A stretch of 61,920 nt of DNA, filler included, from Blastocystis sp. subtype 4 (lineage: Eukaryota), in the NCBI RefSeq assembly GCF_000743755.1. It is 13 parts of 13 records of this genome, joined end to end, with 100 filler letters (N's around TTAATTAATTAA, not from the genome) between each part and the next. Parts side by side here need not be neighbours in the genome. Positions count along the whole stretch, not along the records: positions 47,848 to 52,230 come from NW_014569032.1; 12 more parts are not named here. One strand, given 5' to 3'. Positions 4,289-60,660 of the stretch are shown piece after piece. Positions within the stretch are counted from its first letter, which is position 1. Every line of letters starts with the position of its first letter. Below the pieces are notes generated by a model that made no database searches, was not told the origin of the DNA, and saw only the letters and a list, made by a program, of their open reading frames with translations. The translations under genes were made by a program, and so were the position numbers.

Positions 4289-4440
4289 AGTAGTAGTGTT
4301 TTGACGCATGTTACGTATTTTTATTATCCAGACAAACCGTCGCAAACATGGGCCTCCAACCCTGGGTAGCTATACACGCTTAACCCTGCCCATAAACAAG
4401 CTCGAAAAGGCAGACATTTTGATCATAATTTGGAAACATA
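4289..4440 (+). mobile_element. Polinton-like element terminus, copy 1
   Basis: Starts AGTAGTAGT; 4326-4377 is 52/52 identical to 53550-53601 and homologous to the 46837 and 48041 copies. Confidence 0.7.
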
Positions 4441-4617
4441 TTCAACCCATTTCAAGTCAAATCATGGGCAACAATGAAGCACATAATCTTTGTTCTTTGT
4501 TTTATCACAATGAAACATTTTTGAGATTAATAAACAGTATGAGATTTCCTAATGATATGATTCAACGATACATTTCAGAAATGATAAGTCACCTATTCAC
4601 AAACTATCAAACAACAC

Positions 4618-15423: not shown

Positions 15424-15576
15424 TATGTTTGTTACAATCATTTGTTCACAATTCACTTATATCAGTAACAAACACANNNNNNNNNNNNNNNNNNNNNNNN
15501 NNNNNNNNNNNNNNNNNNNNTTAATTAATTAANNNNNNNNNNNNNNNNNNNNNNNNNNNNNNNNNNNNNNNNNNNN

Positions 15577-18500
15577 AGTATTCCAATCACTTGACACATC
15601 ACTCTGTATCACCTTCCAATCTGTGTATTCAATCTGGAAAGGGAAATATGTTGAGAACACAGTTGATACATAGATTGGTTTCGTTCCACTGTTCATTTCC
15701 ATGATATCCAACTCCATCTCTCCAACGTCAACAGTCAGAGTGTAACCAGATCCAGCAGACCAACCATCTCCATATGAATCCTTTCCTTCCAATGTGTAGA
15801 TACCATCATTCAAACAGAAATCAACATAGTAGTAGGCACTTGCTACAGGGAATGAAGATACCGAATCCAACACAGTTCCTGAGTTTCCTCTTCCTTCATA
15901 CAGCTTCCATGAATTCTCATTGGTATAAGAATCAGCTCTGAATCGAACAGTCATCAGACTCTTGCCATCGGTACACACTATAACTCCAACCGAGATAGTA
16001 GCAGTCACATCTCCTCCAGTCACTTTAGTACCAGTGATAGTGTAGGTCTGAGTAGCACTTTCAACAGCAGCAGTACCTGAGATCCAACCAGTGTGAGGAT
16101 CCAATACAATACCAGCAGGAAGGGCAGGATTGATTCTGAAGTTCATGTAACGATCCGCATTCTCAGGAATCACTTCAGACATCTCAATATCCTTGTACAC
16201 AGTAACTGAAGCATCATAAGTGAAGTTTGGAATATCAACCATCATGTTATCAGCAAACAGATCGAGAGATTGAATTCTCCAAGCACAAGCAGAAGAATCA
16301 CCAGAACCAAAGTTCTCAAACTTGAATTGATTGTAAGGAGTGTTATTAGCCAAATAGATCTTTCTCTTCTGACCAGCAATCGAATAAGTGAGATCAGTGA
16401 CTTCCTTCAGAAGAGTCCAGTCCTCAGTACCTGTATTGCGACCATAGAACTTGAATTGAGTTGCTTTCTGATTACTATATGTTGTTGAATAGTAGTTTTG
16501 AACCTGAATCGAACTGATCCATTCACGACGATTGTTTGATAGAGTCAAAGTCAGATAGTTGGTAGAACAGGATGAATAATAGAGGTTGGTTCCGTAATAC
16601 ATATCAATTGCACTGATTGCAGTTCCACTAATTCCAGACATACTTGCCGTAAGTTCCCACAGGTGAGATTCAGATTGTTCTGAAGGCATCAAACGAACCA
16701 TTGCATCGAAATAGGATGTGGTGTAACTGTCAGCAATAGCAACAATCGCAATAGCAATCGTGTTACTTCCAGATTGAAGGAATGTTTACTGTTGAAGTTG
16801 GAACCTGTTTGCCTGGAAGAGTCACAACATTGTATATCAAGTCAGTATATGAATTGTCAACAGTGGATGAAGTCGACAAATCTCCAATCACTCCATTTCT
16901 CCATGCTTCATTTCCATTCAAATACACAATCACTCCATATTCAATCCAGACACTTCATTCAATGAGGCAATGTTGAATGTCTTCTTATACAACTGAATAC
17001 GATTTGAAGAAGTAGGGAATGATCCTCTAGCAGCCTGTTGCCAACCTGATGTATCAGCATTATGCCAATTTGTAGGCACTTCACCCATCTTATAATACCA
17101 TTGTTCTGAATCCTTGATAGAAGGACGACGAACATACACATTGTGAACATTGCTTTGATAGTTATCATATCGACCTTTCACAACCATCTCTTGCTCACCA
17201 TCAGGTAACATATAGTACATTCGATAATACGAATTAGAAGCCCAGGCAGTAGAAAGAGAATAGAATGAAATATCGAATCGATCGACAGTGATACAGACAT
17301 AATGAACCCACTCAGTGTTGGCAGGATGTGAATGACTAGACTGTATCTGATATAGAATACTATCATCAGATGAGTCACGAATACGGAAGTACTCATACTG
17401 AGGACTTGTTGTGTAACTTCGAGTGATCTTATAGAGAGTTCCCGAACAGTCAGTGAAAGCAATACTGAGAGTGGTCTGAAGCTGCAATGATCCCATTGTT
17501 GACGTAATTTGATAAGGAGTAGATGTTAACAACTGATCAGTCATACCAGAGATGATACAAGTATCGGGATCAATACTGATACCGTTAGGAAGTGCGGGAG
17601 AGATTGAACAGCCATAGTAACCGAAATCAGTAGGAGCAATATGCACCTGCTCTCGATTACGGTAGAACGAATACTGAGTCTCAGGATATTCAATAGACGT
17701 TGGGAGAGGACGATTACAAACAAGGAACTGGAGTTCATAGAGAATGATATTTCCAGACTGCGATGATTGAGCAGTAAATCGAATAAAGCTAAACTTCGGT
17801 GGCAGGGTCACCATGTCATACTGTTTCCACTGACTGGATACGTAGCCACCAGCAGTATTGACTAGAATCGTTTGCCAATTCGAAGTCGATGACTGAGATC
17901 CCTCAATCGTAAATGAGACTGGAGCATTAGTTGGACTTGAATAAGGCCAGATACGATACGAATTAATGAGTGGTATGGAAGTGCCAGTAAACTCAAAAGT
18001 AACGGTTCCAGGAGGAGTAGTGAGAGTGGCTCCACTGTTTCTGGTCCAAGAACCAGCATTGACTCCATTGAGGAATCCAGTAGCTGTAATGGTGGTGCTA
18101 GTAGGAGCAACATAACAGTTATTCTGCGTACTCAAACCAGCAAACAATGACAAGAAACTGTTGAACTGAATAATCTCTTGATAATCAGAAGTAAGAGGAT
18201 GGATTTCAACAGCCAGAACACTTGACTGAGTGACTGGCTGAGCAGAACGAATAATACCATGGTAATCAAAAGAATTATATTCTCCAGATGCAAGAGTGGA
18301 CGAACTAGGTTCTCCATCAGGCATATTATCACGATACACTTCATTTCCATTGATATAAGCTACAACACCATACCGATACTTCATCTGAAGTTCAAACGCA
18401 GCCATGTCATTAATTCCCTCGAATGTCTTACGGAAGTACTGAGTTCCAGGAGCCGACTGAGCAGAGATACCAAGAGTAACACTTGTCCAATCACTATCTG

Positions 18501-18960
18501 GGAAATTCACATCCTTCCAGTTTCCAGTAACACCATTCTTATACTTCCAATCAGAACCCAAGTTGATGGGTGAGTACAGAGATAAGGGTTCAGTTTGTGT
18601 TCTAGACTCTGTCATCATGACCTTATACATAACATTTCCGTTAATACCTTCAATCATGAGCCATGCACCATCCGACCAAGAATCACCAGCTGAATCGGAC
18701 ATCTGAAGTGTATACTGGTTATGATTCGAAGCAGTAATGCACTGTTCAATAACTCGTTCTTGATTATTCACAAGAGAAGGAGACGTGTAGACGACAGTTG
18801 AACCAGAAAGAATCTTGAACGACTCTTCGCCAGCCCAACTGGCCGTTTTCTTAGTCATCTTCACATAGACCTGATTTGAAGGACAGATCAGAGAACTAGC
18901 AAGTATTGCTAGAGATGACATAACAAACCTCAATAATACCGCATACAAGAAATAAAACAA
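15577..18960 (-). pseudogene. Large Ig-like (He_PIG-type) / jelly-roll surface protein, frameshifted, 3' truncated
   Basis: Repeated modules DSxGDxW, YGVxxYxNGNE, PALPxGIxxDPxTGxISG; at ~16940 NEVSGL jumps frame into YGVIVYLNGNEAWRNG, about 6 aa short relative to the first repeat. Confidence 0.7.
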
Positions 18961-19843
18961 ATCGATTCATTTCAAATAAATAATGACTATGCTAAATGAA
19001 ACATGAATAAGCGAATTCTAATAGAAGGCACGATCAGTGATGTGTATGATGATAAAGAAAATGACAATTACTAATGTTAATGTGTTCTCTATAATGGCAA
19101 CACCGCTTGTTATTGAAAAATACTCTCATCCAATAGTACTACTAACTGTGAGCGACAAATTGATAATGAAATGATTACATCCATTAATGTATCATTATTC
19201 GATGTGAATCCTATCGGTAATGGATTATTGTGGACTGTAATTATCTCAGGAACCTAGAAACAACTTTTCTCTCTTGATGAACTCATTAGAAGCTAACATA
19301 GACCTGAGCCAAGAGACTACAATCTAGTTGCTCATACTGTTGAATCTACTTCAATGTTCACAGTAACTGAAACTGGGTACCATCCAATAGGAAGAGAATG
19401 AAAAAGTAAATGATTGGACAATGTAGTTGTATGAACAGGTGTCATTGATTTATTGATTATTATAGAAGTAGTTGGTAATTGTTATGATTCGTAACCATGA
19501 AAACAGCACAGTTTGGATAAACCATAGACTTGCCATCTTCGAAAATGTGCCGGATAATCACTGAATGTCAATCTCATGCTTTTGTCCTCTTGAAGAAATG
19601 ATCATCTTGATTTGGTAACAAGCACTATTGTATTTACGATGAGATATCTATTTCCCACACAATTTACTAGGAAACTGACTAACATGAATCGACACATGTG
19701 TATCCAAAGACATAACAGAAAAATAAAGAATCCATAATATGGTTATTATCGTTCTAGATATAGAGAAGGCATCAAATTTGAGAGAATTCGCAGATAGCTG
19801 TTATCAAATCAAGTCATCATTTCACAATAATAATTGATATTTA

Positions 19844-25449: not shown

Positions 25450-26968
25450 TTAGAATCCCAGGAATCCCAACTCTTCTCTCTCCTTCTTGAAGATTTCAAA
25501 GTACTGGAAGATGGTAGTAACAGCGAGGAGAATTCCAGTTCCAGAGCCAATGGCACCGAGGAAGTCAGCGAACACTGTGAGAGCACCAATACACATGCCT
25601 CCAAAGAGAGCAGCTGTGGGGATATAACGGTTGAGGACATCAATGAGAGCAGTGTCACGATATCCCTTCATTGTCAATCCATCATCTCGGAGTTGTTTTG
25701 CCACATCACGAGCCGAAGTACCAGAGAATTCGATCCAGAGTCTGGACACACCAGCACAAGCTCCCAGCATGAACAATACATACACAACCACTTGGAAGGG
25801 ATCGGCAAGAGCATCAGAGAAGGAAGCAGGAGGTGTGAGATAGTAGATCAGACCGCCAATGGGACGACTCTGCTGTTGATCATGAGACCACTTACCAAGG
25901 AGACCCACAAGGAAGTTGGCATCCCACTTCCGAGAGAGCATCTGAGAGATGATCATGAGATTTGAGGTGAGAGAGGAGATGATGATAATCGGAGTATTGC
26001 TGGTATAGAACAGCTTGATAGGATACACACCCTGTTGTCCACGATACTTCGGATTCTTCACTGGCAACTCCACACGGAAACCCTGGAAATAGACCACCAC
26101 CAGGAACACCACCACTGTGGCCAGCAGATTCGCAATGTTCGGGAGACCAGGACGATAGAAGGCATAACGCAGAGCACGCACCTTATCCTTTCGAGTGATC
26201 AGCAGATGGAACAGAGCAATGATTGCTCCCTCAAACTCCTTACCACGACCATTGTCAACAGTCGTGGGAGAGAATGCACGCCACACCACAGATTCACAGA
26301 TGTTCGTAGCAATGAACAGCGAGATACCCGAACCCAGACCATAACCCTTCTGAAGCATCTCATCCAACAACAGAGCAATAATACCTGCGAATGACAGCTG
26401 GAAGATCAACAGTGTGCATGTGAACCAACCCAACTCACTCGCTGGACCATACATACCAGACACCACATACACAAACGCTGTACAGATCGTCAGAATCACA
26501 CCAAACAGCTTCTGGACACTCTCGAACAACTGACGCTCTTCCTTCACGCTCTGGTCGAACACAATCAGCTTCAGACCAGTCAACAGCTGCATAATCATAC
26601 TTGAAGTCACAATTGGACTAATTCCCAATTCCATAATCGTGCCTCTAATCCATCACCTCTCACCTCTTCTCATACCTGTTTGAAGCCATGATTGCACGAA
26701 TCCAGTAAAGGGGATCTGAAGAACTGGCATTGGCAATTCCATACAGAGGAATCTGACAGCACACCAAATACACAAACAGAGCAACCACAGTCCACAAACA
26801 ACGCTCACGGAAAGGAACCTACACATGAGAGATCTAAATACACTCACCTTCTTCTCAGGGTTCTTCACCTCAGGAAGGAAGCCACATAAGGGCTCACAAA
26901 TGTGAAGGAGATCAACTACATCAATGTTAGATGTGGATTACGCAACCAATTCACGGCTTACATTTCAT
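25450..26968 (-). CDS. SEC61A: Sec61 translocon alpha subunit
   Basis: [60 protein letters not shown]. Confidence 0.97.
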
Positions 26969-33059: not shown

Positions 33060-34359
33060 ATGGATTTGGACCATTGAATCTCTCCTTGAGTGTTGGTACT
33101 TGTTATGATTCTGGCAACAGCTGGAATTCAAGAGGGCAGTAATGTATTCAGTTTCGAGATTCATCGTGGTTTGAATGGTTCTTCTTCTGATCCTGTTGTG
33201 TTTGATGCTACTGGAGTATTTGGAGTTGAAGACTGTTCTACTGTTGTTGATTCTTATTCTTTTCTCAATTCTACTAAACTGGAATCAGGTACTGTTGCTG
33301 ATATCATGGACTTGGATCCTTACACACAAGGTCAGCTTGCTGGCAGAAAGTCAGTTCATCGAATGGACTGTTGAGAATCTGGCTGGAAGCAGATCAAATT
33401 CATTTAACATTCTTTCATATGAAAATATCACTTCATTCGATTTCGCTCTCCGGGGTTTTTACACTCCTGAGAATACTACTGAAGAGCCAGCTACCATTCT
33501 GAAGGTTTCTGAACTAGACATATTGGAAAGAACGAAACCTCAGTTGTCTGTGCCTATCTCTATGGGTGCATTCAGGAAGTATCGATGGGAGATTCCATGG
33601 TCATCTGGTGGTATTCCACCACTAGCTTCGATTCATATGGCTTATTGTAAGCCTGTGGGAGCAATATGTGCTGGAGAAGGAGCATATCCTCCTGTGAATG
33701 AAGGTCAGATGTCTGTGAAGAATTGTGGATATGGATATCGTGGTTATTCATATCGTGAGTGTACAAATGGATCTTTGGGTCCTGAAGTGACTACTCATTG
33801 TGTACTATTGCCACCTGAGAATGTTCGTTATTCCTCAACAGGATTCGTATTTGTGATTGGTCAGACTGTATCTACTGGTATTCCATTAGTCAGAAACATT
33901 GCTACCAACTGGGAGATCAGTTCAACTTCCCTCCCGACTGGATTATCTTTCAACCCTAAAACAGGAGAGATTTCTGGAATTCCAACAAGGGCTTCTTTGT
34001 CTGTTACTTACTCCATAACTGCCAGAAATGCAGCTGGATCTGCCTCAGGTGAAGTATCACTCGAAGTGATTCCAGAGTATATCTTCTTCCCTCAAACTAG
34101 TTTCATCATTAGTGTGGAACAACCCTTCATGCTAACTCCCACACTTCAAAGAACAGCTGTTGTGTCTGTGTTCTCAGGATCTCTGCCTGCTGGTCTCACT
34201 GTTGATGCTTCAACTGGAGAGATTTCTGGAACTCCAACAGAAAGGGTTTCTTCTCGATTCGTGACTATCAATGCTCAGAGTGATGGAGCCAGTCAGAAGG
34301 TTGTTCTCACATTCACTGTTCTCCTTCCTCTCTCTGCCTTCTCCTATCCTCAATCAACC
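33060..34359 (+). pseudogene. Ig-like (He_PIG-type) surface protein fragment, frameshifted
   Basis: C..EG.YP.V.EGQ.S...C..GYRGYSYREC and LPxGLxxxxxTGEISGxP repeats; frame jump near 33345; no clear 5' end. Confidence 0.65.
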
Positions 34360-34459
34360 NNNNNNNNNNNNNNNNNNNNNNNNNNNNNNNNNNNNNNNNN
34401 NNNTTAATTAATTAANNNNNNNNNNNNNNNNNNNNNNNNNNNNNNNNNNNNNNNNNNNN

Positions 34460-38741: not shown

Positions 38742-39039
38742 GATGGAATCCATAGAATCCCATCTCCTCTTCAAACAATGTTTATGAATGGAATCTACAG
38801 ATTGGAAACAATAGAAATAATGGATTAGAAGAGTTCATCANNNNNNNNNNNNNNNNNNNNNNNNNNNNNNNNNNNNNNNNNNNNTTAATTAATTAANNNN
38901 NNNNNNNNNNNNNNNNNNNNNNNNNNNNNNNNNNNNNNNNGATGGAATCCATAGAATCCCATCTCCTCTTCAAACAATGTTTATGAATGGAATCTACAGA
39001 TTGGAAACAATAGAAATAATGGATTAGAAGAGTTCATCA
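38742..39039. repeat. 99-bp exact overlap across contig spacer (assembly k-mer overlap)
   Basis: 38742-38840 is identical to 38941-39039. Confidence 0.9.
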
Positions 39040-46836: not shown

Positions 46837-46980
46837 AGTAGTCAGGTTTGACATATATCACGTACAAATTGGAAGTAGACAAACCATCACCAACATCGCC
46901 TCAATCCTGGATAGCTATACAGGTTTACTTTCGGAATAAGATCAAAATGGAAGACTCACTTTACCCTTTCGAGACATATT
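46837..46980 (+). mobile_element. Polinton-like element terminus, copy 2
   Basis: AGTAGT start, AGACAAACC..AACAT..CCTGGATAGCTATACA core, GATCAAAATGGAAG shared with the 48041 copy. Confidence 0.7.
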
Positions 46981-47057
46981 GTCGGGTGATTAACAACGAG
47001 AATTGTGTCGTTAAAGTAAATGTACTACTCAATAATCATTCAAGGTTAACCATTGAA

Positions 47058-47560
47058 TGGATTATTCACTTGGGACAATCGTTATCGTTTTAATAATCCA
47101 TTCATTACAATGATGATAGTACTATTCACACCTTCTTCAGATGCTCTACTCTCAAACCAATACTGTATCTAATGGTAAAGGAGAATCTGTTGTGTTTGAT
47201 AAAGGATATTATACTCTACCTCACATTATTGCTATGCTCAGTCAAGTGCAATACATATCATCTCAATATCCAATGCTGTTACCAGTTATGATTGTATTCA
47301 TATTGATTCCAATTGTTCAGTTGATTGCTCACAAGCACCAGATTTCATCGATATTCTGGGTCTACAGAAACAGTATATGAACAAGGAAGTAATAGGGGAA
47401 CAAACATCATTGATATCACTAGAAAGAGACAAGTGATTCAAGTTCTTCAATTGTAAACATCTGATCTTAAGATTGTCAATCAGAACAACAATCTGATTAC
47501 TACAATATCACTGATGATCCTAGTCAGATGCTTGAATACTGCTGAAGATGAAACATTCGA
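47058..47560 (+). pseudogene. Degenerate minor capsid (penton)-like gene A
   Basis: Intronless and frameshifted; VFDKGYYTL..IIAML, APDF.DILGL, NIIDITR..QVIQV, NNLITT follow the GxY / LGF / D..I.V order of Polinton-type pentons. Confidence 0.5.
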
Positions 47561-47576
47561 AAGGAGTTGTTAGTAA

Positions 47577-47747
47577 ATGAACAATAGTCTGCCATTGAGT
47601 CAATTAGTGATAAGTGCTGTTATACCAGCTGGTGAATCTCATACAGTGATAGATATAGATAAGAAATCATTTCCAGATGATATCGATTTGACTATCAATA
47701 GTGTTGTAGTGAAGATTGATACTACATCTTTGTACAATGTGAAGACA
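47577..47747 (+). CDS. 5' part of minor capsid (penton)-like gene B
   Basis: ATG 47577; 47649-47747 identical to 57435-57533, where the penton-like motifs continue. Confidence 0.55.
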
Positions 47748-47959
47748 NNNNNNNNNNNNNNNNNNNNNNNNNNNNNNNNNNNNNNNNNNNNTTAATTAAT
47801 TAANNNNNNNNNNNNNNNNNNNNNNNNNNNNNNNNNNNNNNNNNNNNTCTCCCTGGTTGTGATGATGTGTTGATTGACTCAGCTATTGCTGCTACCAGAG
47901 GAGTAATCGAGCAGTTGGAGATTATTAAGAAGAAGATTTAATGTCAGCGCTTGTGAATG

Positions 47960-48040
47960 TCTTTGTTGTGGAATCATCGAAACTGATAGTATAACAATCA
48001 CCTGACACATCACTCTGTATCACCTACCAATCTCTGTATT
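47960..48040 (-). pseudogene. Remnant of Ig-like surface protein gene cut by element insertion
   Basis: 47999-48040 aligns to 15588-15629 and stops exactly at AGTAGT 48041. Confidence 0.7.
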
Positions 48041-48501
48041 AGTAGTAAGGTTTTGATGTATGCCACATTCAAATTTGAGGCATACAAGCTGTCATGAACA
48101 TGGGCCTTCCAATCCTGGGTAGCTATACAAGGTTACTTTCGAATTAAATGATCAAAATGGAAGGCTCCCTTACTATTTCGAACCAAGTTGTTGGATGACT
48201 AATAAAAGAAATGTGTTGATATCTTCAGACCAATCTGAGTTCAAATTTGGTTTCGTTTTATTCACTATTACTAGATGAGAATTCCATCACCTTCTTCCAT
48301 AAACGTTCCAAACGATTTGAGAAATCAATATCAAGGGAATCCATTCATAATGTTAGCCATTTCTCTCAGACTCTCCAATGTTTCAGATCATTTGGGTGAT
48401 AACACAAGATAAGATTGTTGTTCAATCCTTGAGTAATACAAATAATGTAAGAATGATTGGATTAAGGGTGATACAATTACTAATAACAAATCTACACCAT
48501 T

Positions 48502-49382
48502 GTGAATGAACTATCATACATTGCTTATGATGATGTCAGTAGTACAAATGCTGCTACACTTGGTCGTCCTTATGATGGTAAACTCTTCTATAATGTGTTG
48601 AAGTTAGTTCAGAAGTCAGGATCTACTGTTGCTTATTCAACTATCAATGTCAACTTTTCAGATATCTTTGAAGGATGTTCACAGGAACGATTCATCAATC
48701 TAACGCAAATGGATGCTCAGATCATTCCTACCAATGATGATGCATATTTCTACATTAGTAATGGTAAGATCAAGACAATGTCATCTCCTACTACAAATCC
48801 TGTAGATACTACATCTTTGATAGTTGTATTCTGTGGTATCATAGTTACAAGACTGCAAATGAAGATGCATTTGATCCTGAAGATACGAAACTGGTGAAGA
48901 ATCAGATTATGACGAAAACATTCAAGATTCCTGCAAATCAAGGATTCATTGATGATCGAGTCCTTGTGAACTTCCCAATTAAGATGATGTTTATGGTATT
49001 CACAGATGATAATGGTGATTTCAGCAGTTTGAAGGATGTACGATTTAAGCGTATTGCAATGAATATTGCTGGTGAACAGAAACGTATTCTGAATGTTGAT
49101 AATGGTAATAATCCTGATGGAATTGATCATACATTCTTTGAATGGGTTGATTATCTATGCAATTCTCGTAGTGATGAATATGATACTTTGTTGACCTATA
49201 AGACATGGCGAGATCAATTCCGTGTATTTGCATTCCCTATTGCAGAATGGTTCCCACAAAGAGCTCAAAATCAGTTGCAGTTTGAGATTGAATTGGATAA
49301 TTCTGATGATAATGCTCCTAACAAGACTGAAATATTGCAGATGCATTTGATAATGATTCGTGCTAATCAGGTTCAAGCATAG
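48502..49382 (+). pseudogene. Double-jelly-roll major capsid protein-like, frameshift near 48765
   Basis: INVNFSDIFEGCSQERFI, FDSCILWY, PIKMMFMVF, FKRIAMNIAG, LLTYKTWRDQFRVFAFPI, LQFEIEL resemble the motif series of Polinton/adintovirus-type MCPs. Confidence 0.65.
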
Positions 49383-49472: not shown

Positions 49473-49960
49473 ATGCGAATGATAGAAATAGACAATTTCA
49501 CAAAGTCAGATTTCCAACCATACAATGATGATTATGTATACATTCCTATCAAACCAAAAGTTCATCAACAACATTCCAGAAAGATAATGGATAAGATGAT
49601 TCAGAAGTACTTTAACAAAGTTGAAGAAACAGCTCTTAATCCAACTCGTGTATTTGGTAACAAATGGCAATCTTTGAAAGCCACTTATGATACTTATATG
49701 GGTCTAACACCCAATGAACGTCGAAGAGTGGATGTTTCAAATATGCGTGGATATCAATTAGCAAGAAACTCTATTCATTTGAAGATAATTGTGTATACAA
49801 TGTAACAGTTGCTGATAAGTTCAACAAGATTGTTGTTGTTTCAAAAGATCACTTATTGTCTGACACTGAGAAACGAGCTGTGTTTGATAATCCATTTCAG
49901 TTTGAGCCTATATCTCCTTATAGAATTACTTGGCCTACTTCCACCATTCGAGATATGAAA
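49473..49960 (+). pseudogene. Unknown element ORF, frameshifted
   Basis: Intronless 110-aa ORF continuing in another frame (EDNCVYNVTVADKFNKIVVVSKDH). Confidence 0.4.
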
Positions 49961-50003
49961 GATTATTGAAATCAACAAGAGTGTTGATAAGCTCAGTGAT
50001 ACT

Positions 50004-52128
50004 ATGAATACCTTTACCACCAATATGAATACTGTTATGGATAACATATCTTCAACTACTTCTGCTCTAGTAAATCAAAATGCAATGATATACAATGACT
50101 TTAAACAACAAAGACAACAACAAGAACAACAAGAGCAAAAGATATTGAATAGTAATAGATTGTATTATAATAGAGATGGATCTTATGTTAGAAGCAAAGC
50201 CCTTTATGTTCATCGAGGTAGTAAAAACTACAATACATTAATAGAACATGGTTGGAAAGAAAATGGTGATGGAACAATGGTACACATTCGTTTCATTGAA
50301 GAACCTCAACCTGTGGTTCAGAATGTTATACAACAACAAATGGATATTCAACCCCTTATTATGCAAGTGAATAATGTTGTTGCTACACTATCCACTTTTG
50401 TAGATCAAATGACGAGTCTTGATCTTGCAACGAATATTGCAGATATCCATTCTATTCTTGGAGATATAGCAACAGTAGTACGAGGAATACCTAAGAATCA
50501 ATTAGTAATGAATAATGCAATGATTAAGTCAATTACAGATTTACAGAAACAAATAACAACCATAATTGATAAACAAGTACCTGCTTTAACAGATTTGAAT
50601 AATGCTTTCAATACAAGTAGTATTATGAATAGAGAGAATCGATTTGATGAACAAATAGGAAGATTGATTAATGCTCAGAATGATTTGTTCAAGAAGAGTG
50701 AGGATACAATAGCGGCTTTACAACAAAGAATTGATCCAGGTAGAGAAGTAGCAATTGCAAATGTTGTTCCTGGAGTAGATCCAGAAGTTCTTAAAGGGAT
50801 TAATTCGATGGAATCTTTCTTCAAGTTCTCAAATCCCAATTCCTTACTTACTTAACAAAGATGTTGGATGCAAATAATGCCCTAATAGAAAAGGTGATTC
50901 AAAATCAAAACAATCAAAGTGAAGCTTTGACAACGATATCAAGAACAAATTATCATGATCTAGTAGAACAACTACAGAAACAATCGTACAATCATTTCAA
51001 TCCACTTCTAGAAGATTTGAGTCAACAATCAACAAATACTCAAGAAATGTTAACAAATCTACAAAGAGACAAATCATTTGTTAATGGATATGCAAATTGA
51101 TAATCAGAATATGCATAAGGATAACCAGAATATGATGTTAGATATGTATGATGATAACAGAAACATGTTAGGAGTTATCAATCAGAATGTTGTAAATGGT
51201 AATCAACAAAGAGATGCTCAAATGCAAATGATTAATAGTCTACAAGATCAACAATCGTATTTGAATTGGATGATGGAAAATGGACTGACTCGAATTGAAA
51301 ATAGGGCTGATCAGTTCTATCAGGATTATCTTGAATTGCAGAGGAAGATTCCTCAAATTCAGTTTACTAACAATAACATACCATTATTGGATGGTACATC
51401 AGTTAGTCAATTACTATTAACAAATGATAATTCTACTATTGCTCCTGCAATTGTTGATAAAGTGAATACAATTGTACCAGTAATTGTGGAATATGATAAG
51501 TTCAATAATGCAAATATGGGTTATATTAATGAAAGGGATGTGATTCGTGATGACTTCTTATCATTCCTCAATGTTCTAGCAAAGAATCGTGATAACATAG
51601 TACTTATGCAGAAATGTCGTTCTAAAGGTCCAAGATTCTTATTCTCCATATTTCGTTTAAGACACAATTTTCCAAAGATATCAGAGTTCTTTGTTCGTCT
51701 TGCAAATGGAGTAATAACTACAGAAGAAGAAATGGATAGCTACTTTGATTATTTCGAGAATAACATATTAAATCATTATAAAGAGAAAGCTGATATAAAC
51801 CAAATGATTGATAGTGTAATCAATAGTGTGTTGTATTCAAACAAGGTACAATCAAGATTACAACCTATATCTCAGGGGTCTGAACAGACACAACCTCAGG
51901 ATTCAACACAATCTATAGTACAATCAAGTATGATATCTAGACAATATATCTCAGGGGTCTGAACAGACACAACCTCAGGACTCAACACAATCTATAGTAC
52001 AATCAAGTATGATATCTAGACAAAGAAGACCTTTCATAGGTACAAGATTACTAACACAAAAACCTGAACAGACAGATTATAGGATTATACATACAAATAA
52101 GCAATAATCTATGAATAGAAAGAACTGA
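50004..52128 (+). pseudogene. Long Gln/Asn-rich coiled-coil element ORF broken by frameshifts
   Basis: Consecutive ORFs 50004-50855, 50861-51100 and 51078-51962 with the same Q/N/M-rich composition and no introns. Confidence 0.55.
51866..52023 (+). repeat. 79-bp tandem duplication (2 copies, 1 mismatch)
   Basis: TATATCTCAGGGGTCTGAACAG...GATATCTAGACAA at 51866-51944 and 51945-52023. Confidence 0.92.
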
Positions 52129-52330
52129 AAGTAATTTCACTTTGTTTTTCTTATTAATAAACTACACAACATGAGTATTCCATTTACAGTTGATATATCT
52201 GCATTCTATGGTGAACCCGACTTTCGTGAANNNNNNNNNNNNNNNNNNNNNNNNNNNNNNNNNNNNNNNNNNNNTTAATTAATTAANNNNNNNNNNNNNN
52301 NNNNNNNNNNNNNNNNNNNNNNNNNNNNNN

Positions 52331-53240
52331 CCTGAGACCAACCTGATGTATCATCACCAAACCAATTGGTAGGCACTTCACCCATCTTATAATACCATTG
52401 TTCTGAATGATTGATAACAGGACGACGAAGATAGTGATGATGAATATTGCCTTGATTCGCATCATATCGTCCTTTCAGAACCATCTCCTCTTCACCATCA
52501 GGTAACATGTGATACAAGTAGAAATAAGACTTAGACGGCCACAAGGAAAATGTTGAATTGAACACAACATCAAATCGATCCACATCAATATCAATACAAT
52601 GAATCCAATCCTGACTAGCAGGATGTGTATGGTTAGCTGGAACTTCAAATATCACATTACCAGTGGCTGTATCATAAATACTGAAGAATTCTGACTCAGG
52701 ACGCGATTGATAGGTTCTAACAATCTTATAATCTAAGCATTCATCTCTTGTTGATTGCAAAGGATTCATATTGATAATGGAGGAAGAAAGTGAAAACTGT
52801 ACAATTTGAACACTCTTCTCTGTCATTATGGTTTCTATCACAATGGCACCAGTCATATCTCGAATCACAATCCAAGCACCATTACTCCAACCATCATTTC
52901 CAGTATCCAGCATCTTGAGAGAATACAATGAAGAAACAGAGAAAGGTAAACACACTTCCAATACTTTTTCTTGATTATCTTCAAACAATGGAGAAGAATA
53001 CAACAACATATCTCCTCCAAAGATCTGAAACGATTCCTCCTTCGCAAATAGAAGAGTTCTTTTAGTAATATTCACATACACTTCATTAGGAGCACATTCA
53101 ATACCATAAACAAGTCCAACTAACGATTAAGAGTCATCATCAATACTACATAGTAATAATACAAGAACGATATGGCCACACATAGTAGAACAAATTCCAA
53201 CAACCACAATATAGAAGTACTGTTTTTGGTGAAGTCTTCA
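52331..53240 (-). pseudogene. Internally deleted paralog of the Ig-like surface protein family
   Basis: Aligns to the N-terminus of 16930-18960, then jumps to the YKIVRTY..LPDGEEEMVLKGRYD..EQWYYKMGEVPTNW segment; 5' end frameshifted. Confidence 0.7.
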
Positions 53241-56144: not shown

Positions 56145-56758
56145 GGAGAGGCCTGAGGCCGTGTATGCTCTGCGGAGGGCGCGGCGCAAGCGCCGCACCT
56201 CCTTGAGCTGAAGCAATAAATGTGTACAAAAATGGTTAAGTAATCAGTCAAATGGTGTGAACAAAGTAAAACAAACTTTCTAACACTAAAGACAGTGCAG
56301 TAAACAGGGTGACGACCAGACCTCCAAATTCTGCGACAATCGGCAAGCCCTAGATGCGGCGCCGCAACAGGGTCCCGATAATTGCCGATTGCGCCATATT
56401 TGCCGCAGAATGCGCAATAATGCCGCAAATATGGCGCAATTACCTAATGTTTCTGTTTATCAGTTAGTGATTGCTTACAAACAACTTTCTTTAACTCAAT
56501 TGTATTTAGGAATCAATGTCGTTCCTTTTTCTTTAAGATAATCATATTCACTCAAGTAATGTCTCAGGAGAGCCAGTCTTCCACTTTTCTCACAACAAGT
56601 GGAATTCTGCTTAACTCGCAGTAAGCATCGAAGTGTATCTGTAGAAAGGCAGCTTCTTNNNNNNNNNNNNNNNNNNNNNNNNNNNNNNNNNNNNNNNNNN
56701 NNTTAATTAATTAANNNNNNNNNNNNNNNNNNNNNNNNNNNNNNNNNNNNNNNNNNNN

Positions 56759-57339
56759 CAATGAGTGGAACAGCAATTGAAACTGTTGTTCTTTCATTCA
56801 CTGTTATCACTCCTATCTCTTCATTCTCTTATCCTCAATCATCTTATGTTCTATCAAAGAATCATCCATTCTCAATCACTCCTTCTGTCAATGGAGATGA
56901 GATCTCATTCTCTATCATCTCAGGATCTCTTCCTCCTGGTCTATCTCTCAACTCATCTTCTGGAATCATTTCAGGAATTCCTTCAGCTACCATCAAAAGT
57001 ACGCTTCTCACAGTTGAGGCATCAAATGGAATCGGATCTCTCCAAACTCAACTTTCCTTAAGTATGAAGACTCTGTCAATTCTTTCAATCTTTCTTATCT
57101 CTCTTGCTGCTGTTATCATTATCATAATTGTTGTTCCTATTATTGTTATTCAGATGAATTCTCATCACGAACGTCCAGCTTCGAGATCATATCCATGTTG
57201 GTATGACCGTCCTCCTCAGACTGAGAATCCATACATCTCAGTTAATCATCCTCCCAACATGCTATGTAATATCGCAGTTTATGATCCTTCTACAGGTTCA
57301 TATTCATCAAGAACTTCTAAGGTGAATCATTTTGTGTAG
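56759..57339 (+). CDS. C-terminal part of Ig-like surface protein with TM anchor
   Basis: SFSYPQSSY..LPPGLSLNSSSGIISGIP, TM IFLISLAAVIIIIIVVPIIVI; TGTTTGTT at 57364. Confidence 0.75.
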
Positions 57340-57434
57340 TTACTCTTGTTATTAGTTGTATCCTGTTTGTTATGTTATCATACTTGTAAATGACTAGTAC
57401 CAATAACATCTACAACCTATTAATGCATCCTTGT

Positions 57435-57875
57435 ATAGATATAGATAAGAAATCATTTCCAGATGATATCGATTTGACTATCAATAGTGTTGTAGTGAAG
57501 ATTGATACTACATCTTTGTACAATGTGAAGACAACGAATACAGTAGTAGCTCGAAATGATTCAGGACCAAAGAATATCGTTGTTGAAGCAGGATACTGTG
57601 ATCAAGAATCATTAGAAGAGATGTTTGGTTCATATCTCACATTCACAGAAGATGGATATGCACATCCTTCTGGTCCTGCTTATGATTTAGTATTTCAACA
57701 AGTACCTGACTTGAGTCGAATATTGGGATTTGATAAGATTCAGGCAAGTGGTGTGAAAGGGAAAGAACCAGTAGATCTATCAAATGGATTGAACTGTATT
57801 CGAATCTACAGTAATCTGGTAAAGCAGATGATATCATTTGAAACAAGTCCATTAGTGGATTGTATGATCTATTCA
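57435..57875 (+). mobile_element. Isolated fragment of penton-like gene B between host genes
   Basis: IVVEAGYC, LSRILGF, PVDLSNGLNCIRIYSNLVKQ..PLV motif order; first 99 bp identical to 47649-47747. Confidence 0.65.
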
Positions 57876-57950: not shown

Positions 57951-59753
57951 CTAGGAACGATTCTTGACTTCTCTAATAACTTGTCCTTTATCTCTAGTTC
58001 GGTCGTATGTATTTTGTAAGAGAATCAGCATCTTAATCATTATCAACTTATCAAATTTACTCAAACTGTTCAGTTCTATCACATTAATGAATGATTCATT
58101 CAACTGAATACCTTCATCCGTGAGTGATGGAATGTCTAATTCATATTCAAGCATCAATCATCACTCTCCAATTGTACTTTGCTCATGTACATGAAGCCAC
58201 TCCTATCTCCCTTGAGTAGAGTAAGAGAAGGGAGATCTAATAAATCAATCATCATTATCATTTATGCTCTTCATTATCAATTTATTTCTACTTCTATCGT
58301 AATCATCACCTTGAACGGAAGTTGATCCAAGAGTGATTGTTTCAAGTTGATTCAAATCTCATTCATCAATCATTCAATCATTCATACTCTCAAATACCAC
58401 TGAATGACACATACCAAAGGTGGACATATCTAATTGAATGGATTTAAGTAAAGGGAGATTCTTCAATTCAAATGAATCATACCAACGGAATGAATAATCC
58501 CCAAAGTGGATTTGTCTCAATTGATCACAATTCCTTATAACGCATTTGCTCCCTTCTCTTCTGCCATTCAGATAGAAACTATTCTTACCAATCTTCACAC
58601 TCCTCAGTGTATTTAACCCTTCCAGTACAAATTGACTTACTTCTTTAAAACAATCATTTCCAATTTCAACTCTCTCAATTCCATTAAGCCAAGTTGCACT
58701 AAACGAATTCAGATCATTCCCATAATCATTTTTATAACGTAGAACACCATACTCTCCTTTTATCCATCTCCCACTTCTAACCAATTCATCATTCTCATTG
58801 TACTCTTCTCCGTTTCCATCCCTCATTCCATCCTTCCATTCTCCAATATACACTAGATTCAGGTCTTTGAATTCACTTCCCTTCCCTTCTCTCTTCCCAT
58901 TCTTCCAATCACCATAATACAAGGCTCTCTTTCCATCACTCTCATACTCTGTTCCACTCTTTGCTCGAACAAATCCTTTTATAATATCTCCTTCAAATCC
59001 TCCTTCATATACTCTCACTCCATTCTCATCATACTCAATCATGTTACATGATGGATAGGGATTATTATAACGATTACCAAAACCAGTATTAGGGTTACCA
59101 AAACCAGTATTGTTAGGTAAATTCAAACCATATCCTGCCACTCCACTACCAGTAAACTCTCGAATAAGTTTCTTCTTCACTCCATTCTCATATAAACATT
59201 CTCTCTTCAAGCGTCCTGATTCGCCCTCAAAACATCTTCCATTCTTTCTCCACCTATCATCATATTCACTCACACTCAACAGTTCTCCTCCATTTACGTT
59301 GGCCTCTGAATAGAATCCATCCATTCCTTCCTTTTTTTTCAGTTCTCTGTATCGCTTTCCATTTTGATAGAATCCCCTCCATGTCACATTTCGAGAACTG
59401 TCATACTCTTCAAAAACACTGCATTCTTTCCCATGTTCCAATTCACCTCTAAGGATAGTTCGACCATTCTGTTCCTTCTTCAATACTATCCCTTCTGCCA
59501 AGTCATTTACAAATTTCAATTTCATAAACAATGTTCCATTAGCATATAGAATCAATCCATCTCCTTCTTTCTTTCCATCTTTCATATTTACTAACATTTC
59601 ATAATTAGAAGACTGATAGGATATATGGACGGTTGCTTTTCCTGTTTTTGATCCATCATCATTCTCAATCTCGACACTGCTAACCTGGAAGTCAGCTAGA
59701 AAGGAATCCTGTGGAAAACCTAGTCGTTCATTTGGAATATTTCCAGTAAACAT
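57951..59753 (-). CDS. MORN-repeat + LRR protein without TM (multi-exon, possible terminal frameshift)
   Basis: Paralog of 1843-4217: YxGxWKxGxRxGxG repeats, IGNDCF/IGKNSF LRRs, DLPSL and DIPSL exons; 21-bp NTGFGNP duplication at 59074-59111. Confidence 0.8.
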
Positions 59754-60399: not shown

Positions 60400-60660
60400 G
60401 GTTTCTAGTAGATTATTGTACAACAGCTCCATGTCGAATGTAGTATTCAAGAGAATCAGCATCTCAATCATTATCAATTCATCAATCATACTCTAACAAT
60501 ACACATTATTCACATATTTGATGCAAAATACCCAACTGAAATCGTATGGAGTGATGGAATATCTAATTCAAGTTTTATCATCAATCACTATTATCCACAA
60601 TGGAAGTCTTTTTTATCAGTTGATCCTCTATCATCCCATACAATCAAATCAGACACATTC
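60400..60660 (-). pseudogene. 3' remnant of a MORN/LRR family gene
   Basis: DIPSLHTI and DADSLEYYIR exons homologous to 57951-58160, with stops. Confidence 0.5.

Follow-up and report, generated by a model that had tools for sequence, protein, structure and literature searches.

In the genome of Blastocystis sp. subtype 4 (ST4), two partly overlapping open reading frames (ORFs) around positions 48502-49382 of the DNA analyzed here together resemble the capsid gene of a DNA virus. What kind of virus left this gene, and can it still work? We examined it in the window, by which we mean the whole stretch of 61,920 nt (filler included), made up of 13 contigs of ~4.3-5.5 kb joined together; the capsid-like frames lie on the contig at 47848-52230. 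Since the window is a set of joined short contigs, genes on its other contigs are not true neighbors of this locus.

The capsid gene remnant

The preliminary description had joined frame A to frame B at ~48765 to give a frameshifted gene of ~290 aa. Frame A is a stop-to-stop ORF at 48487-48897 (136 aa) and frame B one at 48768-49382 (204 aa); both frames and all of the motifs originally quoted are present. The top match in a search with the frame-B protein is P0001, a 425-aa intact homolog of the window remnant. Frame A over 48502-48813 corresponds to P0001 residues 129-232 (97% amino acid identity over 104 aa), and frame B over 48816-49379 corresponds to residues 238-425 (100% over 188 aa; E = 1e-116, far beyond chance). 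The two frames together hold ~292 aa of capsid protein when measured against P0001, very close to the length first proposed. The switch itself, however, lies at 48813/48816. There the window lacks 13 nt that intact relatives have, and five capsid residues are lost relative to P0001 (at ~48814); the part of frame B upstream of 48816, which had been counted as coding, is out-of-frame sequence. The N terminus had been called decayed but is instead missing: DNA identity to intact elements begins abruptly at 48505, and no part of the window contains codons 1-~129. With these codons absent and a frameshift at ~48814, the window copy is not a complete single-frame ORF.

An intron or a programmed frameshift at the break was rejected, since the homologs are single-frame and need the missing residues. 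We consider it very improbable that the gene is nevertheless expressed, by programmed frameshifting or splicing, or that the host has co-opted it as a shortened capsid fragment. Frame B does stay open for 188 codons at full identity, and three of the four private substitutions in the capsid part of the window are synonymous; but the young age of the copy accounts for the intact identity, and the synonymous changes may come from the parent lineage. Against expression also stand the absent 5′ codons and the five deleted residues, the neighboring 868-aa gene, which is broken likewise, and the metagenome loci described below, where a two-frame capsid gene occurs in none of 40. In one RNA run, 48838-49354 is covered by two short contigs of low depth that may derive from DNA. 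In our judgment, the window copy is very likely a truncated, frameshifted pseudogene of a predicted double-jelly-roll major capsid protein (MCP) gene from a ~21.5-kb Polinton-type (MELD) virus, and a likely nonfunctional relic integrated in the Blastocystis genome.

Table 1. Features of the contig that carries the relic and of related sequences on other contigs of the window
Feature	Position	Strand	Basis
Host flank, with high-copy host repeat at 47968-48040	47848-48040		Match inside host ORF; deep contigs diverge at 48040
Terminal-repeat-like end of older related element, starting AGTAGT	48041-48216	+	Likeness to two other ends
Decayed homolog of the left-end 163-aa gene of the intact element	48266-48481	+	Nucleotide identity to L003 537-821
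MCP gene remnant, codons ~130-232, frame A	48505-48813	+	97% amino acid identity to P0001
Frameshift site, 13 nt shorter than intact copies	48814-48815	+	Comparison with intact relatives
MCP gene remnant, codons 238-425 plus stop, frame B	48816-49382	+	100% amino acid identity to P0001
Broken homolog of the 868-aa gene of the element	49473-52107	+	Indels and duplication compared with intact copies
First 20 codons of the 326-aa GG-motif-rich protein (contig ends there)	52171-52230	+	100% amino acid identity
Left end of L003-type element, separate contig	4290-4617	+	97-100% nucleotide identity to L003 1-297, 36-nt gap
Right end of related element and decayed 5′ part of 1019-aa penton-like gene, separate contig	46837-47546	+	Nucleotide identity, tblastn
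Diverged homolog of 227-aa penton-like gene, separate contig	57456-57872	+	31% amino acid identity, E = 2e-14

Fold and family of the intact protein

We modeled the intact protein with AlphaFold2 from a 68-sequence alignment led by the natural protein P0001. The model (mean pLDDT 84.8, pTM 0.85) has two strand-rich halves. Its best Foldseek match in the PDB is the MCP of the Sputnik virophage (E = 2e-12, TM 0.56, 11% identity), followed by mavirus, PRD1 P3, an iridovirus, STIV, and PBCV-1, in this order; the Sputnik and mavirus structures matched are 3j26 and 6g43-6g45 (E = 2e-12 to 8e-10). Matches to double-jelly-roll capsids span 430-500 columns, and all 21 PDB matches listed, together with the named top matches in the viral library, are viral double-jelly-roll capsid or capsid-like proteins. 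The intact homolog is predicted to form two tandem beta-barrels, and no cellular family competes in the structure search, which bears out the capsid fold first proposed. The protein is predicted to be a double-jelly-roll MCP of Bamfordvirae type, of whose first barrel the window copy lacks a part. Because strands of that barrel are gone and the frame is broken, the window copy would be unable to yield a capsomer.

The best match in BFVD is A0A8S5L5M3, "Uncharacterized protein [MELD virus sp.]" (TM 0.93, 71% identity). It is the same protein as DAD57294.1, which is encoded on a 28,117-bp contig, is 71.5% identical to P0001, and was deposited as "hypothetical protein." A second named relative, KAK8793536.1 ("hypothetical, partial"), comes from Blastocystis sp. 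BT1; it has 99.5% identity over 376 aa and lies on a contig of 2,054,810 bp. A protein this similar on a 2.05-Mb Blastocystis contig shows chromosomal integration. These deposited names agree with the expectation that automated annotation would call the gene hypothetical, as do the searches with P0001, which found no Pfam match at E ≤ 1 and no PHROG match.

Among proteins of 316-2000 aa, the frame-B search gave 76 matches, each a cluster at 90% identity, from 196 candidates (58-100% identity to frame B, mostly 415-455 aa). A profile search of 1.84 billion representative proteins gave 40 matches, including full-length relatives at 17-41% identity; Pfam capsid models matched none of the 14 relatives from this search that were tested. 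Capsid relatives were not found in scans of IMG/VR. An atlas feature search returned viral "hypothetical" clusters at 0.97, some with Capsid_N on 12-33% of members, which is a lead only. Pfam and PDB sequence searches with fragments and the family profile gave no meaningful match; weak ones to Chd1 and PRDM9 were set aside as chance. In a quick tree of 26 of 84 sequences (thinned at 80% identity, no known-virus outgroup), which cannot place the family, P0001 falls inside a supported 15-row clade. Judged by sequence, the capsid belongs to a separate lineage together with the "MELD virus sp." protein at 71.5% identity.

The intact element and its relation to known viruses

Intact copies, for which the preliminary description had proposed a search, do exist: Near-identical intact genes occur in human gut contigs, in addition to the BT1 protein. 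A metagenome scan for the capsid gene gave 40 loci (designated by L numbers). There are 25 single-frame, stop-free matches of at least 400 aa, none with a frame change, and two matches with a stop; the remaining loci are partial, nearly all cut by contig ends. L002, L003, and L006 (on contigs of 23.0, 24.0, and 24.7 kb, the last named as a human gut metagenome contig) are mutually >99.4% identical. Alignment of the end fragments in the window to L003 suggests that the element is ~21.5 kb long.

L003 opens with three small ORFs and a 1602-aa PolB. Two ORFs separate the polymerase from a 339-aa rve integrase, and a 369-aa ORF lies between the integrase and the capsid. After the capsid come an 868-aa ORF, a 326-aa protein, a putative adenain-like protease, and a 445-aa ATPase, with three penton-like ORFs last. 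The integrase matches PF00665 (rve) above the cutoff (E = 5.8e-11). The PolB ORF, of the protein-primed type, has Exo I/II and polymerase motifs; PF03175 (DNA_pol_B_2) gave no Pfam match in the PolB of L003 or L020 but matches that of L008, which is 56% identical (E = 3.6e-15). Walker A/B-like motifs are present in the ATPase, and Pox_A32 matches one of four copies scanned (L027, E = 0.0035), a hit below the curated cutoff that is weak but consistent. The protease ORF is conserved (129-141 aa, with H/D/Q/C residues in an order, H, D, Q, C, that we take to be adenain-like) and has no Pfam match in four copies. With its eight GG[A/R] motifs, the 326-aa protein is likely a core or cement protein cleaved by the protease. 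The penton candidates of 227, 114, and 1019 aa, which we assigned by motifs presumed to be diagnostic, have no Pfam match, and a single-sequence fold of the 227-aa candidate (pLDDT 31) is uninformative. Relatives at 67-77% capsid identity have the same gene core in shuffled order.

The protease ORF of L003 (14908-15435, + strand) lacks an ATG and has a CTA codon close to the Met position of its relatives, which start with ATG; its first part shares sequence with the end of the GG-motif gene but is read in a different frame. A non-AUG start, splicing, or recoding possibly explains this. GC content is 31%-32% in L003 and L027 versus 42%-48% in L008, L020, and L028, a spread that possibly tracks Blastocystis subtypes of different GC.

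The label "Polinton/adintovirus-type" holds in its first half only: The intact relatives sit in elements with a Polinton gene set, but the capsid is by sequence not that of an animal adintovirus. Like Polintons/Mavericks, the element is ~21.5 kb long and combines a pPolB-type polymerase, an rve integrase, and an A32-like ATPase with a predicted double-jelly-roll capsid, a putative adenain-like protease, and candidate terminal repeats that start with AG. These features, including terminal repeats starting AG, define Polintons. In contrast to Polintons and adintoviruses, Pfam capsid models do not match its capsid by sequence, and its host, Blastocystis, is a stramenopile and not an animal; the best adintovirus match to the virion protein in the structure search has 10% identity (TM 0.53).

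The closest solved capsid folds are those of the virophages Sputnik and mavirus (Lavidaviridae in the older sense), and mavirus-type elements have PolB and integrase in common with ours. One might therefore suppose that the intact element is not an autonomous polinton-type virus or transposon but a virophage-like satellite dependent on a large DNA virus that infects Blastocystis; abstracts on related elements describe helper-triggered reactivation. We think this unlikely. Identity to virophage capsids is 8%-11%, with TM scores of ~0.5-0.56 that are near those for PRD1 and the iridovirus; the 1.84-billion-protein search gave only 40 matches, and none of the 14 tested matched a Pfam capsid model. 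The capsid, with 425 aa, is also shorter than the ~500-600 aa of those of Sputnik and mavirus.

Viruses of a similar kind are already known from this host genus. According to Starrett et al. (2021; PMC8502044), Blastocystis MELD virus sequences join adintovirus-like PolB and integrase to virion proteins unrecognizable by sequence, the combination found here; the PolB of "Blastocystis MELD virus 3996" is used in 10.1101/2022.05.25.493380. The capsid of "MELD virus sp." (DAD57294.1), which possibly comes from the MELD virus 3996 genome, is the relative at 71.5% identity. Our element is a distinct lineage (~71% capsid identity), present at 99.5% in the ST4 strain BT1, and the window copy is a relic. 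The window holds, then, a newly recognized, defunct copy of a MELD/polinton-type virus of Blastocystis, a kind of virus described in 2021 but little studied. We found no dedicated study of this capsid clade in the literature outside subscription papers. Blastocystis is unmentioned in PMC13215967 and 10.64898/2026.10.13.758929; its genomes are listed in Table S1 of PMC10120064, and the main text of PMC12129017 contains neither "polinton" nor "maverick."

Higher-GC members of the family carry KilA-N genes (PF04383, E = 5e-10; L008 12712-13623 and L020 8151-9032). The available part of the egovirus preprint (10.1101/2024.03.23.586382), a study of other viruses in which no gene flux involving Blastocystis is reported, describes KilA as apparently restricted to parabasalid polintons; these genes may be an exception.

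The relic itself is of little weight; the interest lies in the intact, apparently multicopy family and in the indel-rich decay. The relic does reveal that the commonest human gut protist has a large virus family with hardly any annotation and with relatives down to ~17% identity. The family is invisible to Pfam and PHROGs, and the capsid assignment supplies a marker with which to survey it. Should intact copies form particles, cultures of Blastocystis would be a tractable system for asking whether polinton-type elements make virions, and the decay offers a direct view of how a compact protist genome removes inserted DNA.

Junction, decay, and host genome

From 48505 onward, 3.7 kb of the contig is 97.6%-98.3% identical to L003 10388-14101. 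To the left, pieces of the left-end gene have 71.5% (48266-48402) and 77% (48421-48481) nucleotide identity to L003, and the end at 48041 resembles those at 46837 (75% identity over 178 bp) and 4290 (74% over 96 bp), which run into the right and left ends of L003, respectively. From this contrast (~73% vs. ~98%) we infer that a young piece was joined to the end of an older relative. The right-end fragment at 46837 has 79.7% nucleotide identity to L003 20706-21257, and its penton-like gene gives a tblastn E-value of 5e-31. Four related ends starting AGTAGT occur in the window (4290, 46837, 48041, and 53516), three of them adjoining left- or right-end genes; within the window they look like terminal repeats (TIRs). 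Four such ends among small contigs totaling 62 kb mean that relics of this family are common, and they probably cause assembly breaks.

On its left the relic is joined to a host repeat: Positions 47988-48040 are 90.6% identical to 15577-15629, inside a host ORF, and contigs of very high depth span 47968-48040 before diverging at 48040. Members of a large family of host proteins, beta-rich and putatively surface-located, are encoded at 15529-18966, 33175-34407, 52275-53126, and 56707-57339, and the left flank of the relic is a decayed piece of this family.

The young piece differs from L003 by 21 substitutions, 13 of them private among eight near-identical loci, and by 10 indels, each 1-18 nt long, and one tandem duplication of 79 bp in 3.7 kb. 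Over the same 3,714 bases, L002, L004, and L006 have 12, 17, and nine substitutions and zero, zero, and two indels. The homolog of the 868-aa gene holds four frameshifting and four in-frame indels as well as the duplication (51866-52023). Microhomology is not enriched at the six deletions of at least 6 nt (summed 8, null mean 4.9, P = 0.16), leaving microhomology-mediated repair unsupported as their cause; the word "Blastocystis" is absent from the main text and four supplements of a paper on loss of C-NHEJ (PMC6635534).

Independent sequencing bears on the junction and on the frameshift in different ways. Part of the stretch is carried by 20 of 24 listed runs, from 11 studies, and we compared the contigs of eight runs. 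A 651-bp contig identical to 47917-48567 (zero differences) reaches from the host flank through the element end and across the junction at 48505; it occurs in X1 and X2 (one sample of study P1) and in X4 (study P2), one of which may be the window's own source. Junction contigs are shallow (depth 8.3, 22.4, and 4.1 in X1, X2, and X4, against 82, 172, and 68 for intact capsid contigs; 2.1 against 9.0 in X7 and 2.1 against 5.3 in X6), which suggests a single relic beside several intact copies, although contig depth is not copy number. The 13-nt deletion is absent from the contigs of the six runs that cover 48814, all with the intact allele; since contigs drop minority variants, this absence neither confirms nor refutes the lesion. 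X17 does not reach the site, and the raw-read run X22 contributed zero reads. The other indels of the young piece were likewise seen only in the window. The deletion is in none of the 40 metagenome loci, and no protein with the frameshifted capsid tail was found in the protein collection.

Could the 5′ truncation be real and the small deletions, the 13-nt frameshift included, be an assembly mosaic of several copies? The 13-nt allele appears in no independent data set, the window is a string of ~4.4-5.5-kb contigs with 99-bp end overlaps, and the relic contig crosses ~940 bp identical to the intact element, a stretch in which short-read assembly usually stops when intact copies are there as well. 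A mosaic, however, would be expected to favor the deeper, intact allele, and deletions of 3-18 nt are atypical as short-read errors. The window-private substitution at 48537 recurs in the low-depth junction contig of X1, X2, and X4, so the allele is truly distinct. On balance a mosaic seems to us improbable, and we retain the reading of a genuinely decayed copy.

For such a copy, the course of events may be sketched as follows. The intact element would integrate by its rve integrase, be copied by its protein-primed PolB, and build icosahedral particles from the capsid protein, penton-like proteins, the A32-like packaging ATPase, and the adenain-like protease. The window copy would be a recent offshoot of the intact family: Deletion or recombination would have brought codon ~130 and the rest of the capsid gene next to an older relative's left end, and small deletions would have accumulated after the joining, with a capsomer no longer possible. 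More speculatively, and with some doubt on our part, ST4-type cells might carry several near-identical intact copies of a particle-forming ~21.5-kb DNA virus that still moves or replicates. The clade would then rank with the commonest DNA viruses of eukaryotes in the human gut, and the host would be destroying inserts through small deletions at an unusually fast rate, with about one indel for each new substitution.

Exact 99-bp overlaps join contig ends (47649-47747 = 57435-57533 and 38742-38840 = 38941-39039), the first linking the right-end relic at 46837-47747 to a penton-like ORF at 57390. Repeats at 58002-58492 and 60431-60597 are 73%-76% identical to L040. Another relic, at L040 218-776, is a short capsid fragment at ~90% DNA identity with an AGTAGT-type end upstream; it also appears in X1, X2, and X4, from two studies, as a low-depth contig matching 48607-48743.

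Host sequence in the window matches Blastocystis. A Sec61-alpha exon at 25453-26652 is 95.5% identical to proteins of Blastocystis sp. NMH and DL. The GC content of the window contigs is 33%-43%, a better fit to ST4 (39.4% in BT1) than to ST1 or ST3 (51%-55%) according to a table in PMC12129017.
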